Virus record (IMG/VR): IMGVR_UViG_3300003973_000001
Span: 64,001 to 127,323 of that record
Strand: one strand, 5' to 3'
DNA: 63,323 nucleotides
From: a virus
Taxonomy: Duplodnaviria > Heunggongvirae > Uroviricota > Caudoviricetes
Shown here: positions 6,984 through 23,501 of the stretch, piece after piece
How the letters are laid out: every line of letters starts with the position of its first letter
Numbering within the stretch: position 1 is the stretch's first letter
Program-made: the position numbers and the translations under genes
Notes under the pieces: generated by a model
Told to the model about the DNA's origin: nothing
What the model saw: only the letters and a program-made list of their open reading frames with translations
Databases searched by the model: none

Positions 6984-7081
6984 CTTTTTTATTTGAATCT
7001 AAAGTGTGAAGGTGTCACACGTTAACATAAAAGGCGAAAAAAATTTTTTAACACATAAATAAATAAATGGAGGAATTTAAA

Positions 7082-9145: not shown

Positions 9146-9174
9146 TTGACTTCTTAGTGTGATGGTGTTACACT
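9146..9174 (+). promoter_or_regulatory. sigmaA promoter containing motif B
   Basis: TTGACT-17-TACACT. Confidence 0.7.
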
Positions 9175-14954: not shown

Positions 14955-14983
14955 TTGACTGTCTAGTGTTATGGTGTTACACT
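14955..14983 (+). promoter_or_regulatory. Promoter of the recombinase-like gene, containing motif B
   Basis: TTGACT-17-TACACT. Confidence 0.7.
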
Positions 14984-15016
14984 AATACACGTAGTAATCA
15001 AAAGGAGATGATTTAT

Positions 15017-16036
15017 ATGATAGCACAAGTAATTGAATTGAATGATTCTGAAGCAGTAGATTTACATAATTTTAAAATCTACAATATTTTTCAATCTTTT
15101 ATAGGAGCGCATGCGATGAACTCAGAGCGAACAGCAGGGGAGTATCAGAGTAGAATCACAGAGTTCTTTCAAATTGTATTAAATAAACCGATTCAACTAG
15201 TAAAGGAAGAGGATGTTATAAATATTGAAAGATTAGATATTCAGAACTATGTTAGCAAGTTACTGGAAAATAAGAATTCTAAAAAGACTATAAAGACTAA
15301 ACTCAATAGCGTATCTAGTTTTTATAATGAAATGATGAAGAATAAGATATCGTTGAATCAATCGATTCTAAGAGTCAGTATGAAGACGACAACAAAGCAT
15401 CATGATTCACTATCATTTCATGAGTTAGAAGACCTGTATGAGTTTATGAGAGGCGAAAAGGAATTATCTTTAGAAAAGCGTCTCGTAACGAAGTTCTTTG
15501 CTACGACAGCAAATCGTAGGAGTGTTACATTCAATATGACTTGGAATAACATCACACAAAAGACAGACGTTGTGACAGGTAGAAAAGTGTGGGTAGTAAC
15601 AGTAATAGCAAAAGGTGTGAAAGAATCAGAGAAGCCAATCTCAGATGAATTCTATGAGGAGTTGCAACAGTTGAATAATGGACAAGATAAAGTATTCAAC
15701 CTATCCTCTAGGACGTATGAGAGAGCCTTAGAGAGATTTTCTAAGCAGTTGGGCAGGAAGGTCACTATCCATGGATTAAAGGCTACAGCAGTTACTATAG
15801 GATATCAGATGACAAAAGATATTAACCTTTGTAAGCAGTTAGCAGACCATGAAGATATTTCAACTACAGGAATCTATCTGAAAGAAGAGAAGTCTTATAC
15901 GAATCAGCTTAGCTACAATATGAGCAGAAAGTTAGATGATTCTATTTTAAAAGATATGAGCAAAGAAGATTTATTGAAGTTTCTAGAAGATAATGAGGAT
16001 ATTAAGAATTCAATCTTAATGAGATTGGGTGTATAG
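15017..16036 (+). CDS. Tyrosine recombinase/integrase-family protein (SPbeta YopP-like?)
   Basis: SAM-like N-domain; ANRRS (R), HGLK (K replaces R of HxxR), LADHEDISTTGIY (H, Y). Confidence 0.8.
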   Translation: MIAQVIELNDSEAVDLHNFKIYNIFQSFIGAHAMNSERTAGEYQSRITEFFQIVLNKPIQLVKEEDVINIERLDIQNYVSKLLENKNSKKTIKTKLNSVSSFYNEMMKNKISLNQSILRVSMKTTTKHHDSLSFHELEDLYEFMRGEKELSLEKRLVTKFFATTANRRSVTFNMTWNNITQKTDVVTGRKVWVVTVIAKGVKESEKPISDEFYEELQQLNNGQDKVFNLSSRTYERALERFSKQLGRKVTIHGLKATAVTIGYQMTKDINLCKQLADHEDISTTGIYLKEEKSYTNQLSYNMSRKLDDSILKDMSKEDLLKFLEDNEDIKNSILMRLGV

Positions 16037-16049
16037 CCTAATCTCTGGG

Positions 16050-16078
16050 TTGACACCATTAAGCAAAAGTATTACAAT
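16050..16078 (+). promoter_or_regulatory. sigmaA promoter with motif A in the spacer
   Basis: TTGACA-17-TACAAT; 29 of 30 bp identical to 31610-31639. Confidence 0.8.
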
Positions 16079-16115
16079 GTTAATCGTTAAGTATTTTGTT
16101 AGAGGAGATGAGATT

Positions 16116-16373
16116 ATGTATTTATTAGAATTTCACTTCCCTTATACGAAGGAGACTGTTCCAAAAACTCTTGTCGAGTCGCAGAAACTTCTAAATCACC
16201 TCGTCCACTTTTTGCAGATAGAACTGTGTAGAGGTAGGCTAGACAATCATATAATCATCGTTACATCCGCCTCAGGTTATCGAGATGATATTCCTATTAT
16301 TGGCAGAGAAATTGAAGTAATTATGTTTATTCATCAATTTAAGAAGCAATATTGCCTGCAGATGCCACACTAG
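16116..16373 (+). CDS. Hypothetical protein
   Basis: GAGGAG RBS. Confidence 0.6.
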   Translation: MYLLEFHFPYTKETVPKTLVESQKLLNHLVHFLQIELCRGRLDNHIIIVTSASGYRDDIPIIGREIEVIMFIHQFKKQYCLQMPH

Positions 16374-16554
16374 GTAACATGATTGAAAATGGTTGATATA
16401 ATAACTGTTTTCGCTTATAATTTATTTAAGCAAAAGATTTGCAGAATTTTAGTAGTTAAATTAAGCGAATTAACCAATCGCTTCAAAACTTAGGAGGTTT
16501 TTACATTGAATCAATCTATTACAAAGCACATAATAAGGAAGGAAGTAATTAAAA

Positions 16555-16983
16555 ATGAGAGATATTTTAAATTTACAGGCTTTAAAACATAGCAAGAATA
16601 GGAAACATAATAAGATTTATGAGAAAGCACATCGCATTATGTCAGAAGGATATGAGACTCCAGAACTTACTGATGAAGAAGTTATGGAGATTGCAAAAGG
16701 CTTCACAATGCTTGATACGACAGTATTAATCAATGGAGATATAAGAGTAATTAGCAAGAAAGATACTTGGATGATTCGAGATGAAGGCAGATTTTATACT
16801 CTATACCATAAAGGATTCACTTTTACAAAAGAGAGAATGAAAGAGTCTTATCACGTTCAAGATGTGTTCTATGACATAAACTATATTTTTGCAAGCATCG
16901 TAAGCCATGATGACTATGCACTGGGAATCAAATGTCGAAAGCCATCCGAATTAAAGAAAATTGTCGAATCATGTCGAAATTGA
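16555..16983 (+). CDS. Hypothetical protein
   Basis: ORF with RBS. Confidence 0.7.
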   Translation: MRDILNLQALKHSKNRKHNKIYEKAHRIMSEGYETPELTDEEVMEIAKGFTMLDTTVLINGDIRVISKKDTWMIRDEGRFYTLYHKGFTFTKERMKESYHVQDVFYDINYIFASIVSHDDYALGIKCRKPSELKKIVESCRN

Positions 16984-17030
16984 TGTGATTCGTAAGTTTT
17001 AACTGTAATTAACTTGAAAAATTTGTCGAA
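16933..17030 (+). promoter_or_regulatory. Cluster of four perfect Spo0A boxes (TGTCGAA)
   Basis: 16933, 16962, 16972, 17024. Confidence 0.7.
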
Positions 17031-17081
17031 ATTAACTGGTTAAATAAACCAAAATTCTTAAAAGAAATTATTGAAAAACCC

Positions 17082-17110
17082 TTGCATTCCTTAAGCTAAT
17101 GTATTACAAT
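17082..17110 (+). promoter_or_regulatory. Promoter of the MrpR-like gene with a motif A variant in the spacer
   Basis: TTGCAT-17-TACAAT; TTAAGCTAATGTATTACA 17091-17108. Confidence 0.7.
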
Positions 17111-17195
17111 TTATTTGTAAGGTTAACAAACTAATAAATGGAAATTATTATAAACATTAAATAAATTGGATATAATAATGAAGGGGAGTTCTAAA

Positions 17196-18389
17196 ATGAC
17201 TAAAATTATAATTTCAGACAAACTAAGACAGGAATTGGATGGACTGTTCGATGCTATAAATCACCCTATGTTAAAGGAATCTAGAAATCATTTTGAAACT
17301 AAACTATCTAAAAGTGTTGATTCTAATAAAGTTAAGTCTATCTTAGATAAGGAAGAAACTATTGATATTCTAGATAAAGATGAGGCAATTGCTTTCTTTG
17401 AAAGTCTAAGAATCCATTTTAAAAAGAATGAGTTTAGTTCAGATAATATTAAATTTGCTGAAGATGCTTCAGATACTAAAAAAGGTTTATATAATGAAGA
17501 TTTTAAAGAAGAATATTTAAGCAAGTATAAGGATAACACAAGAAGAGTTAAAAGAATTATTTTTGAAAAATCTAGAACTTTAGAATTAACTTATGGTAAA
17601 GATTTATATGATTTCAACTTTGAACAATTAGAAGAAGTTTTACGCAGTCTTAAAGCTAGTACTGTTAGGAGTTTACAAAATAGCGTAGCTACTATCGCTC
17701 AATATACTAAGTTTGCTATAAAGAATAAAAAGAAAAGCGACAAGATTAATTATATCGATGGATTCACTAAAGATAAGATTGAAGAATACTTAGATAAAGA
17801 ACGAGAAGAGAATATGATTTTCCCTAAACAGGAGATTATGAATATTGCAAATGAGGCAGAGAATCCTCAAGATGGAGTTATCCTAGCATTAATCTTTGAT
17901 GGAGTTAGCAATAAGAATGAGTTTGAAGAATTAATCAATCTATCTGAAGATGATATTGATTTTGATGATAAAGTAATCAAACTTGAAGATAGGGAAGTTC
18001 CTATGAGCGAAGATACTTACACTTTAGTAAAAGGTGCTATCAACGAGCCTAAGTATAGCAGTACTTCTGGAGATGTATCTCGTGAATATAAATTAGCTGA
18101 GAGCGAGTTTGTTCTTCGTGGATTAAGAAATAATAAACAAATCAAATGGCAGAACATTAGTCAACGTATTATCCGCCTTTCTGAGCAGTCTGGTTGGGAG
18201 AAAACTCTAACAGCGACAAATGTTGCTTATAGTGGTCAGCTTTATATGGCAGAGCAATTAATCAGTCAAGGAATGGATGTCGAACAAGCAATTGGAGTAA
18301 TAATTAAAAGATTTGGAATAAATGACAATCCTTCAGCTCAATTTTACTTAAGAGAAAGAATTGAAAAGTATCTTAAAATGAATAAATAA
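17196..18389 (+). CDS. mrpR: MrpR/YopR-family lytic-cycle repressor (catalytically degenerate tyrosine-recombinase fold) with N-terminal extension
   Basis: YLSKY..NTRRV..IIFEKS..LE..YGKDLYDFNFEQLEEVL..L; ILALIFDGV lacking catalytic R; TATNVAYSG lacking HxxR. Confidence 0.7.
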   Translation: MTKIIISDKLRQELDGLFDAINHPMLKESRNHFETKLSKSVDSNKVKSILDKEETIDILDKDEAIAFFESLRIHFKKNEFSSDNIKFAEDASDTKKGLYNEDFKEEYLSKYKDNTRRVKRIIFEKSRTLELTYGKDLYDFNFEQLEEVLRSLKASTVRSLQNSVATIAQYTKFAIKNKKKSDKINYIDGFTKDKIEEYLDKEREENMIFPKQEIMNIANEAENPQDGVILALIFDGVSNKNEFEELINLSEDDIDFDDKVIKLEDREVPMSEDTYTLVKGAINEPKYSSTSGDVSREYKLAESEFVLRGLRNNKQIKWQNISQRIIRLSEQSGWEKTLTATNVAYSGQLYMAEQLISQGMDVEQAIGVIIKRFGINDNPSAQFYLRERIEKYLKMNK

Positions 18390-18561
18390 TCTTATATAAA
18401 GTATCCATATTTAAAAATAATCTAATTCATATAAAAAATAGTCGTAATATAAAATAAAACATATATATAATAGAAGATATTGATTTTAATTAAAATATAA
18501 TATAAGGATATATCTAAAACAGAATGTAATTTTTAACAATTGACTTTTTTAAGAAAAGGTA

Positions 18562-18591
18562 TTGCAAAGAATGTAACATTAATGTTATATT
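18562..18591 (+). promoter_or_regulatory. sigmaA promoter with motif A at -35 and palindrome TAACATTAATGTTA in the spacer
   Basis: TTGCAA-18-TATATT with extended TG. Confidence 0.65.
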
Positions 18592-18624
18592 CAATACCTG
18601 CTACACATCTTCATTCCAATAAAA

Positions 18625-18788
18625 TGCAAAGAGGTTAAGCTATATCAAACTTTTATCTATAATGAGAATTTTCTACAATCAGCTTGAACGCCAATATATA
18701 TATACGAGGCGAACTTCAAGCTGATTGAAAAATGAATTCTAAAGAGAAAGTATTACAAAATTCCATAAAGGTTCACAATCTCTTTGCA
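18625..18788 (+). ncRNA. Candidate rod-like structured RNA or leader
   Basis: 13-bp perfect stem 18676-18688/18715-18727; outer stem 18625-18636/18777-18788. Confidence 0.5.
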
Positions 18789-18864
18789 ATAACTTCACAT
18801 TTACTATCCAAGGTAAATAAAATGGAAACCAAACAACTTCACACATTCTAGGAGGAATAGAAAA

Positions 18865-19350
18865 ATGCGACTATGTCATACAGCCATTACAATTAAAAGC
18901 CTGTCAACGATGAAGGGATTTAACGAGCTTACTCAAGGAGAGGAGCGCATTGAAGGCATGTTGCTACATAACTGCCTAGAGCTTCGAGGTCAGAGCGTTG
19001 GTTTCACAAAAACAAGAATAGACGTTGTTACTAACGAGTTTAGTAGAAACACTTTAGAAGAGTTTGTGAATATGTCTATTACTAACAGCCACTTAAACAG
19101 CTTCATGTTAACAATTATGCGAGCGCAAGCGGAAAGAATCCTACGCTATTGCGTACCCATAAACTACGTCACTGATTTTGCTGAAGCTTCGAAAAAAGCT
19201 GTCGATGAATTTGGATTCGATAGAACGTGCGATGGTATCGAAAAATACTTCACATGCGGAACGGTAGAAGCAGTAAAGAGTACATACAAGCATGCACTAA
19301 AATATTTGGAAGAAGGAGTGACTCCTGTTGAATCAAGAACGATTAATTAA
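18865..19350 (+). CDS. Hypothetical protein
   Basis: GGAGG RBS. Confidence 0.7.
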   Translation: MRLCHTAITIKSLSTMKGFNELTQGEERIEGMLLHNCLELRGQSVGFTKTRIDVVTNEFSRNTLEEFVNMSITNSHLNSFMLTIMRAQAERILRYCVPINYVTDFAEASKKAVDEFGFDRTCDGIEKYFTCGTVEAVKSTYKHALKYLEEGVTPVESRTIN

Positions 19351-22697: not shown

Positions 22698-22796
22698 ATG
22701 AAGGAATTCGTACTTGGAGTAACTGCATGCGCTATAGGATTTTGTTTATATGATTTATTTGAATATAGCGTGAAAAAATTTTTTAAAAAATATTAA
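22698..22796 (+). CDS. 32-aa hydrophobic microprotein
   Basis: AAGGAGG RBS; MKEFVLGVTACAIGFCLYDLFEYSVKKFFKKY. Confidence 0.6.
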   Translation: MKEFVLGVTACAIGFCLYDLFEYSVKKFFKKY

Positions 22797-22812
22797 GCAA
22801 AGGTATTGCAAA

Positions 22813-22863
22813 AGAACAAATGTTCTGGTAAGATGGAAACATCAACCAACGAACAAGCGTTCG
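22813..22863. promoter_or_regulatory. Two LexA (DinR/Cheo) boxes in a motif-A promoter
   Basis: AGAACAAATGTTCT 22813-22826 between TTGCAA and TAAGAT; CGAACAAGCGTTCG 22850-22863. Confidence 0.85.
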
Positions 22864-22881: not shown

Positions 22882-23127
22882 ATGCTAATTAAAAAACACT
22901 TAAATAAACAAGCAACTTACTTTACTAAATCACTATTATTCTACCGCGAGAAAAAGTTAGCTTTAGCAATAGGATTTTCTTGGTCGGTAAACGGTGCGAA
23001 ATGGCACGATGAAAATAAAGTGGCTCACACATTTGGATTATTTAAACAAGTAGCTCCATCGACAATTATGAGAGCGTTAGTACTTGGCAGATTACGATTA
23101 AACTTTGTAACAGCAAATAAAAACTAA
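22882..23127 (+). CDS. Hypothetical protein, predicted SOS-inducible
   Basis: AAGGAG RBS; directly downstream of LexA boxes. Confidence 0.7.
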   Translation: MLIKKHLNKQATYFTKSLLFYREKKLALAIGFSWSVNGAKWHDENKVAHTFGLFKQVAPSTIMRALVLGRLRLNFVTANKN

Positions 23128-23147
23128 AAAACTTGGAGGAAACAATT

Positions 23148-23501
23148 ATGACAACAGCAATTATTATTTTAGTAGAAGAAGAGAAAGTAGCAGTACCTAC
23201 AACACGAGTTTACCCAATGGAAGATATGTTTGTAAGCGATGATAGAGAGCTTATCCGAGATGCTAAAATGGTATCTCTAATGTCTGAACTTAAGGATTCT
23301 CCGCGCGTGGATTACATTAGAAAACAATTTCATAATGCAGTTCGAAGAAGCCTTGGAATTAATAATGTAATAGCTGTAGCGCCTCATAAAGATGGAACAA
23401 CAGTAGATATTGTAGTCTTTGATGTAGAAGCCACTGTAGACAATCAATTTACTACTGGATGGGATGCAGAAAAGCAACTACCATACATTGAATTAAACTA
23501 A
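23148..23501 (+). CDS. Hypothetical protein
   Basis: GGAGG RBS. Confidence 0.7.
   Translation: MTTAIIILVEEEKVAVPTTRVYPMEDMFVSDDRELIRDAKMVSLMSELKDSPRVDYIRKQFHNAVRRSLGINNVIAVAPHKDGTTVDIVVFDVEATVDNQFTTGWDAEKQLPYIELN

Follow-up and report, generated by a model that had tools for sequence, protein, structure and literature searches.

The closest described counterparts of the locus reported here are the sro repression operons of the Bacillus phages SPbeta and Phi3T. MrpR (YopR), the master repressor of SPbeta, no longer functions as a recombinase and binds a repeated element, SPBRE, at ten promoters (PMC10516654). Its Phi3T counterpart, SroF, binds a 26-bp asymmetric A-tract box as a DNA-encircling monomer, and is removed by Sar (YopT in SPbeta), a DNA-mimic dimer under the control of LexA (bioRxiv 10.1101/2025.11.27.690993). 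SroE acts as a second repressor, and the integration of SPbeta is carried out by the serine recombinase SprA. The roles of the sro genes are said to have been worked out by Brady et al. in 2023, with SroD, which corresponds to YopP, reportedly acting as an auxiliary repressor, and SroE corresponding to YopQ. Studies of SroF/MrpR, the repressor with the integrase fold, have been confined to arbitrium phages of B. subtilis, in which it works together with SroE, SroD, arbitrium and Sar. Here we describe a locus at positions 14,955 to 18,389 of a window of 63,323 nucleotides (the whole stretch of DNA that was analysed), which is the right half, positions 64001-127323, of the 127,323-bp virus record IMGVR_UViG_3300003973_000001, a single record judged 100% complete. 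Coordinates are window positions, except those prefixed G000:C1, which refer to the whole record. A previous sequence-only reading of this stretch had proposed a candidate lysis-lysogeny switch built from two domesticated tyrosine recombinases, each sitting on its own operator. We consider it likely that this region serves a temperate, SPbeta-like Bacillus cereus-group phage of ~127 kb as its lysogeny-control module and derives from the sro repression operon of SPbeta, with the protein encoded at 17196 as the master repressor. Since two recombinase-like proteins in a repression operon are the known design of the sro operon, the locus is a variant of that design and not a new switch type. Judged by its sequence, it belongs to the known sro kind in a distinct architecture, free of arbitrium and of SroE and with new parts.

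The candidate master repressor

The 397-aa protein encoded at 17196 (17196 protein) matches the Pfam family PF22822 (MrpR_N_CB) with 77.2 bits against a cut-off of 27, precomputed database matches for its homologues include PF22823 (MrpR_C_cat), and close homologues are labelled in their sources as "phage lytic cycle repressor MrpR family protein". Residues 98-366 align to residues 2-280 of MrpR/YopR, with phmmer E values of ~1e-17 to the chains of YopR/MrpR and Phi3T SroF (8bj6/8a0a/9rd5). The AlphaFold2 (AF2) model of the protein has a predicted local distance difference test score (pLDDT) of 87.5; its top Foldseek match is the Phi3T SroF-DNA structure 9rd5 (E 4e-16, TM score by target 0.71) and its second is YopR/MrpR, with Xer, Cre and Int ranking lower. 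Together with the reciprocal best hits described below, these matches bear out the likeness to SPbeta YopP and YopR/MrpR that had been pointed to in the sequence-only reading. The YopP-like and MrpR-like families did not match each other in a profile-profile comparison, and the catalytic positions of the 17196 protein were therefore mapped through the alignments to MrpR and SroF. The first catalytic arginine is replaced by S238, in the same GVS context as in YopR, and the HxxR motif by N342-V-A-Y345, in agreement with the losses noted earlier; both are gone in all relatives. In the MrpR-like protein of one relative (L015, in G004) a threonine occupies the equivalent of the tyrosine nucleophile (FYL to FTL), which indicates that this tyrosine is dispensable in the family. 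The 17196 protein is a catalytically dead integrase-fold protein of a known repressor family, and we propose, from what is known of SroF and MrpR, that it binds a repeated asymmetric operator and maintains lysogeny.

Residues 1-97 are extra relative to both MrpR and SroF, as the estimate of about 100 additional N-terminal residues had implied. They fold confidently within the AF2 model (pLDDT 75-88) into two short strands and four helices, and the domain is common, at low identity, to about thirty homologues of ~400 aa. In some MrpR-family homologues (P0042, P0046, P0050, P0061, P0068, P0075) a GIY-YIG or HNH nuclease domain takes the place of this extension, so that the N-terminus of the repressor family appears as a swappable module.

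The surroundings of the gene are those of an SPbeta-like genome, in which the left end is short and on the + strand, the structural genes form a long arm on the - strand, and early and replication functions occupy a + strand arm of 72 kb. Nothing in the phage collection matched the region by megablast, and near relatives were found only through protein and contig searches: the nearest homologues lie in B. cereus-group assemblies, mostly contigs of 115-140 kb, with one record labelled as a plasmid. The gene order YopP-like, 142-aa, MrpR-like, 161-aa is kept in nine related loci, in which a ligase gene comes next wherever the locus reaches that far and the gene is intact. Every gene of the module has its own promoter. 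Two repeated sequences recur in these promoters, the 18-bp motif A and the 20-bp near-palindrome motif B, and the core of the module reads as follows.

14955..14983, + strand: promoter of the YopP-like gene (TTGACT at 14955, 17 nt, TACACT), with motif B (14964-14983) over the spacer and the -10
15017..16036, + strand: YopP/SroD-like protein of the tyrosine-recombinase family, 339 aa, with R167, K199, H252xxK255, H278 and Y287
16050..16078, + strand: strong sigmaA-type promoter (TTGACA, 17 nt, TACAAT), the spacer of which is a motif A copy (16059-16076)
16116..16373, + strand: 85-aa open reading frame (ORF), found only in close B. cereus-group relatives at 64-65% identity
16393..16443, + strand: promoter ahead of the 142-aa gene (TTGATA, 17 nt, TATAAT), with a motif A copy (16426-16443) at about +1
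16555..16983, + strand: 142-aa protein with invariant H85, H100 and H118 (plus W72, Q102 and D119)
17058..17110, + strand: promoter of the repressor gene, with a degenerate motif A (17058-17075), -35 TTGCAT (17082-17087), 17 nt and -10 TACAAT (17105-17110)
17196..18389, + strand: candidate master repressor, an integrase-fold protein of the MrpR/SroF family with 397 aa, the added small helical domain being residues 1-97 (17196-17486)

Outside the phage context, a stand-alone MrpR-like gene with its promoter is found between insertion sequences, with no other phage genes, on plasmids of the B. cereus group (L005-L007, 212-229 kb; H63-H66). These copies share 84% DNA and protein identity with 17043-18404, and the gene may be a captured immunity gene.

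Comparison with the sro operons

The locus shares with the SPbeta and Phi3T sro operons a YopP-like HxxK gene upstream of an MrpR/SroF-family gene on the same strand, an integrase-fold repressor devoid of the first arginine and of HxxR, an asymmetric AT-rich repeat scattered over the genome, the absence of an S24 autocleavage domain and a LexA-boxed operon of small genes downstream. It differs from them in having no aimR/aimP and no recognised equivalents of sroA-C, while a Rap-Phr pair is present. The DndB-like SroE is also absent, and its slot holds the histidine-rich 142-aa protein and the 85-aa ORF. The repressor carries ~97 additional N-terminal residues, each gene has a promoter of its own in place of the single operon, about 61 oriented sites are found instead of about 10, and the LexA-boxed genes lie 4.5 kb off. 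Finally, four Spo0A boxes stand upstream of the repressor promoter, and the host belongs to the B. cereus group, in which the phage is probably a plasmid prophage. The absence of arbitrium was assessed with the NCBIfam model lysogeny_AimR, which reaches its cut-off in the B. subtilis control, and with SPbeta AimR; neither matched in the complete genome or in four related complete genomes. Peptidase_S24 (PF00717) gave no match in the complete genome, and CI/S24 is also absent from the four related ones. What had been noticed for the window, the lack of a CI-like S24 protein and of aimR/aimP, holds therefore for the whole phage and its complete relatives.

The YopP-like protein and motif B

The protein encoded at 15017 (15017 protein) matches Pfam Phage_integrase (E 6e-12) and SAM-like N-domains, and it pairs as reciprocal best hit with SPbeta YopP (28% identity) and with gp148 of the Geobacillus phage E3. 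Both it and the 17196 protein have the core-binding plus catalytic two-domain fold of XerC/D, Cre and lambda Int, but neither has the complete canonical R-K-HxxR-H/W-Y active site. The 17196 protein is without three residues, namely the first arginine, the histidine and the second arginine, whereas the 15017 protein, in alignments with archaeal XerA and with the canonical recombinase of this phage, keeps R167, K199, H252, H278 and Y287 and has K255 (H252-G-L-K255) in place of the second arginine, just as the sequence-only reading had described. The five retained residues are invariant across 66 family members, and position 255 is a lysine in 65 of the 66, including SPbeta YopP (HSFK), an HxxR being present only in E3 gp148; HGLK is thus a hallmark of the family. 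This pattern points to purifying selection on the rest of the active-site pocket. The term "domesticated" does not fit the 15017 protein, because of its intact active site, and the conserved pocket would leave room for an enzymatic role. The 15017 protein is the counterpart of SroD/YopP, and we propose that it acts as an auxiliary factor with an almost complete recombinase active site.

Motif B does lie in the promoter of this gene (14964-14983), as previously stated, and is present in three window copies with up to three mismatches, against 0.00 expected. It overlaps the spacer and the -10 of promoters at 9155, 14964 and G000:C1:53351 (- strand), and weaker copies are found at 7002, 36479 and 50212. 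The proposal that it is the operator of the 15017 protein itself finds no support here. One relative (L014) has a comparable inverted repeat, ACTGTAA/TTACAGT, at the same place before its YopP-like gene, with both arms changed, and no inverted repeat like motif B was found upstream of the YopP-like gene in the other relatives.

It is possible, although somewhat unlikely in our opinion, that the 15017 protein is an active site-specific recombinase and no transcription factor, acting for example in multimer resolution of a plasmid prophage or on the inverted repeats of motif B, and that its adjacency to the repressor gene is inherited synteny. The invariance of the five residues in a family of 66, the conservative nature of the change at position 255 and, by contrast, the loss of these residues in the MrpR-like family agree with this explanation, as do the 7-8-bp arms of motif B and the presence of plasmid-type partition genes in the phage genome. 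However, the same genome encodes a third tyrosine recombinase (G000:C1:25613-26644, - strand), inside the tail-gene arm and outside the window, which is canonical and Xer-like with an intact HxxR. SPbeta YopP/SroD, with the same HxxK, is reportedly an auxiliary repressor, and integration of SPbeta falls to SprA. The three to four copies of motif B stand within promoters, where an active enzyme would delete or invert essential DNA, and a site of 21 bp is short for a recombination core. The Xer-like recombinase, which has relatives in phage Sundance and in two plasmid prophages, c-st and phiCD211, is a candidate multimer resolvase or integrase. No serine recombinase was found in the genome, and an Alp7A-like actin, of the kind involved in plasmid segregation, is encoded at the start of the + strand arm (G000:C1:60712-61878). 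The separate recombinase and the actin favour a plasmid prophage, for which the 15017 protein is unnecessary as an integrase. A temperate, plasmid-like lifestyle is also suggested by the Rap-Phr pair of the genome and by the homologues on 115-140-kb contigs and on the record labelled as a plasmid, and the prophage probably persists as a plasmid.

The slot of SroE

Between the YopP-like and MrpR-like genes, SPbeta, Geobacillus phage E3 and phage Perkons have DndB-family genes (YopQ, E3 gp147 and Perkons ORF65). In the present phage, no match to DndB (PF14072) was obtained at E<=1 in the complete genome, and the slot of the DndB-like SroE/YopQ is occupied by the 142-aa gene. This gene and the 85-aa ORF that precedes it had been taken for orphans, a description that fails for both: they are conserved genes, and the 142-aa protein, whose position is the same in each of the nine related loci examined, is conserved better than any other member of the module, with 57-65% identity among relatives against 46-54% for the YopP-like and 38-46% for the MrpR-like proteins. 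Its family comprises 26 representative clusters of 87-165 aa with zero fusions. The model of the 142-aa protein (pLDDT 95) found no convincing match with Foldseek in PDB, BFVD and AFDB clusters, in a wide VIA-align search or in Atlas; its best fold score is Z 6.1, with a weak likeness to YbjN and secretion-chaperone-like alpha/beta domains. Atlas feature searches for this protein and for the N-domain of the 17196 protein yielded nothing usable, and Pfam, PHROGs and NCBIfam are blank for the products of 16116, 16555, 18865, 22882 and 23148 and for the same N-domain. It can be hypothesised that the histidine-rich 142-aa protein replaces SroE and that, together with the N-domain of the repressor, it may supply the role of SroE. 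Descent of the 142-aa protein from a DndB-like SroE was also considered and rejected, since hhalign of its family against YopQ, E3 gp147 and Perkons ORF65 gave a probability of 0.1% and blastp returned nothing.

Motif A, the most likely site of the repressor

Motif A (TTAAACAAAAGTATTGCA, 18 bp) is present in 61 copies in the genome, allowing up to three mismatches, and the window alone contains 37 against 0.2 expected. Its orientation follows transcription in all but one copy, with ratios of 41:1 in the + strand arm and 17:0 in the - strand arm. In 22 of the 61 copies the TTGCA of the motif is a -35 with a correctly spaced -10, and a further arrangement, found in 15 copies, places the motif directly against a Shine-Dalgarno sequence and start codon. 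The motif fills the spacer of sigmaA promoters at 16059, 31620 and, in degenerate form, 17091, and lies at about +1 at 16426. Its reported occurrence in the repressor promoter is correct: a variant with four mismatches occupies the spacer (17091-17108), in addition to the degenerate copy at 17058-17075, and this motif-in-spacer layout is the same in every relative examined, as expected for autoregulation. Related phages have their own variant of motif A in tens of copies, differing at positions 11-12 (GT, CC or TT) and at the end (GCA, GAA or AAA), namely ...AAAAGTATTGCA here and in G001, ...AAAACCATTGCA/AAA in G003 and ...AAAA(T/G)TATTGAA in G004. Such a concerted change between phages points to a sequence reader encoded by the phage. 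We propose, by analogy with the known members of the family, that motif A is most likely the site of the 17196 protein. Motif A resembles the SPBRE copies and the Phi3T box in an A-tract core only, a likeness too weak to be used as an argument.

By analogy with SroF, the 17196 protein would clamp as a monomer around this long asymmetric site. Where motif A is the -35 of early and late promoters, as it is in many cases, a bound protein would occlude it; where it lies at or after promoters, or before internal ribosome-binding sites, a bound protein could stop elongation in the manner of a "stoperator". The weaker variant in the spacer of the repressor's own promoter would give negative autoregulation. 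A comparable situation is that of the stoperators of Cluster A mycobacteriophages, read by L5 gp71, where tens of asymmetric sites oriented with transcription share a lineage-specific consensus, some being located at promoters and many within operons, in short gaps between the genes. The likeness is one of mode of working and not of family membership, as L5 gp71 is a small helix-turn-helix (HTH) protein with a 13-bp site, whereas the presumed reader here is an integrase-fold protein of 397 aa with a site of at least 18 bp.

We regard it as unlikely that motif A is not the operator of the 17196 protein, being instead a promoter or activator element of the phage (similar to a MotA box and replacing the -35) or a signal at the RNA level, with the 17196 protein bound at few sites only. 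The strict co-orientation with transcription, the use of TTGCA as a -35 and the copies that adjoin a ribosome-binding site are compatible with such an element, as are a core that remains alike across phages whose MrpR-like proteins are only ~40% identical and a number of sites six times that of SPBRE. Nevertheless, a scan of the proteins, which was not exhaustive, showed neither a phage RNA polymerase nor a sigma factor, and an activator site would be out of place at +1 (16426) or within the spacer of sigmaA promoters that otherwise fit the consensus (16050, 31610). In addition, the relatives examined have the motif in the spacer of the repressor promoter, and the reading of long asymmetric A-tract sites at many places is a known property of SroF-type proteins.

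Candidate inputs: LexA, Spo0A and Rap-Phr

The assignment of the 17196 protein as master repressor raises the matter of its induction, and three elements outside the genes described above may bear on it; two of them lie in the window.

16933..17030, + strand: four perfect copies of TGTCGAA, the Spo0A 0A-box, within 98 bp, 50-150 bp upstream of the repressor -35
22793..22863, + strand: promoter of the 22882 operon, with motif A at the -35, a LexA box GAACAAATGTTC (22814) in the spacer and a second, CGAACnnnnGTTCG (22850), downstream
22882..23501, + strand: LexA-boxed operon of two genes, 22882-23127 for a basic protein of 81 aa and 23148-23501 for an acidic one of 117 aa

The boxes at 22814 and 22850 flank the -10, and CGAACnnnnGTTCG at 22850 is the only perfect LexA box of the genome. 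In L008, the same double-box promoter precedes a homologue with 40% identity to the 22882 protein, and L021 and L022 also have the perfect box. We infer from this conservation that the operon is wired to host LexA. Its products are candidate SOS-induced antirepressors: DNA damage would probably derepress the 22882/23148 operon through LexA, and one or both products would then act on the repressor like Sar in Phi3T and SPbeta and inactivate it. The 23148 protein evolves faster than the repressor, with 73% identity on a contig on which the MrpR-like protein is 99% identical, and its homologues (P0167-P0171) are of a short (115-117 aa) and a long (190-193 aa) form.

The four Spo0A boxes are a local cluster of a sequence that totals 20 copies in the genome against 15.5 expected. 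They are intact in L012 and L021 despite substitutions between them, partial in L022 and absent from five more distant relatives, and would suggest a lineage-restricted response of the repressor promoter to Spo0A. The claim of a circuit that reads both host regulators is accordingly well supported for LexA, whose double box is conserved in relatives, and is narrowed for Spo0A, whose boxes are confined to the closest ones. A hairpin with a 12-bp stem and a T-rich tail (16965-16992) overlaps the stop codon of the 142-aa gene and holds two of the four boxes; it may terminate that gene while sharing sequence with the Spo0A boxes. The third element is a Rap protein (RapH_N plus TPR) with a 44-aa secreted Phr-type prepeptide, both encoded outside the window; Rap is present in four of the five complete genomes of the clade. 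The pair belongs to a cassette at the left end of the genome (G000:C1:5223-8297), which also contains a PemK/MazF-like ORF, recognised by eye, and an Xre-type HTH protein.

That this Xre-type protein sets the lysis-lysogeny decision from the left genome end, the recombinase-like pair being accessory or temporal, seems to us highly improbable: the protein (HTH_3, 117 aa, G000:C1:6242-6595) is weakly similar to RstR-type phage repressors (54.6 bits, cut-off 80) and adjoins an RRNPP-type Rap-Phr signalling pair, and L008 has an opposite-strand HTH_3 gene right after its MrpR-like gene, but clear-plaque mutations of SPbeta map to yopR and MrpR is the master repressor, large B. cereus plasmids captured an MrpR-like gene and its promoter as a stand-alone gene, and no repeated palindromic HTH-dimer operator was found near lytic promoters except motif B.

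Weighing the proposed circuit

Several observations weigh against the assignment of the region as the lysogeny-control module, with the 17196 protein as master repressor acting at motif A. Some phages described as virulent also have such genes, a YopP-like one in the lactococcal 949 group and both a YopP-like and an MrpR-like one in E3, and the pair need not serve lysogeny everywhere. As many as 24 of the 61 motif A copies lack both a -10 and an adjacent start codon, and 61 sites is a large number beside the ten SPBRE peaks of MrpR. In favour of the 17196 protein as the reader of motif A, residues aligned to the base-reading positions of Phi3T SroF (core-binding helix 2 and helix 13) are identical in phages with the same motif and different in those with another one, but this match is confounded by overall divergence (88% versus ~40% identity), to which that of the YopP-like and 142-aa proteins runs parallel. 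The closer relatives L021 and L022, in which the MrpR-like, YopP-like and 142-aa proteins and motif A are conserved together, do not discriminate between these proteins as the reader of motif A. With regard to induction, the LexA-boxed operon lies 4.5 kb from the repressor gene, in contrast to sar at a distance of one ORF, the first protein that it encodes is strongly basic, and no LexA box adjoins the 17196 gene. Lastly, the Xre-type HTH gene at G000:C1:6242-6595 could encode a conventional repressor.

The module may be combined with its putative inputs into a full circuit. In such a circuit, a SroF-type repressor free of arbitrium and SroE would work through about 60 oriented operator or stoperator sites, the 142-aa protein and the N-domain would replace SroE, and the inputs would be Rap-Phr, by way of Spo0A~P and the four 0A boxes, and the LexA-controlled antirepressor operon. 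This complete arrangement is speculative, and we consider it quite unlikely as a whole. If it were true, the Rap-Phr/Spo0A~P route at the repressor promoter would be a functional stand-in for arbitrium.

The interest of the assignment of the 17196 protein to the MrpR/SroF family is that it places the same repressor family in a large clade of B. cereus-group phage-plasmids devoid of arbitrium and SroE, in which the repressor has gained a domain, is accompanied by a new conserved partner protein and faces a network of sites that is far denser and strictly oriented. The module makes it possible to test the role of SroD, the active site of which is conserved, the contribution of SroE, which the clade does without, and the block of elongation by a SroF-type monomer at stoperator-like sites. 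The concerted change of motif A between related phages would also provide a natural set of variants with which to map the reading of DNA sequence by an integrase fold.

Genes next to the module

Downstream of the repressor gene, the conserved order continues with a further gene and its promoter.

18549..18591, + strand: promoter of the next gene, in which a motif A copy supplies the -35 (TTGCAA, 18 nt, TATATT), with a leader of ~270 nt
18865..19350, + strand: 161-aa gene, directly 3' of the repressor gene in all relatives and fast-evolving, with 32-40% identity in distant ones

In the distant relative L008 (9260-10200, - strand), an HTH_3 gene and a 186-aa gene come right after the MrpR-like gene, placed like yopS in SPbeta; the corresponding position in the window is a 475-nt AT-rich gap (18390-18864). 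A Bro-N/KilAC antirepressor-type protein is encoded at the start of the + strand arm, at G000:C1:57021-57818.

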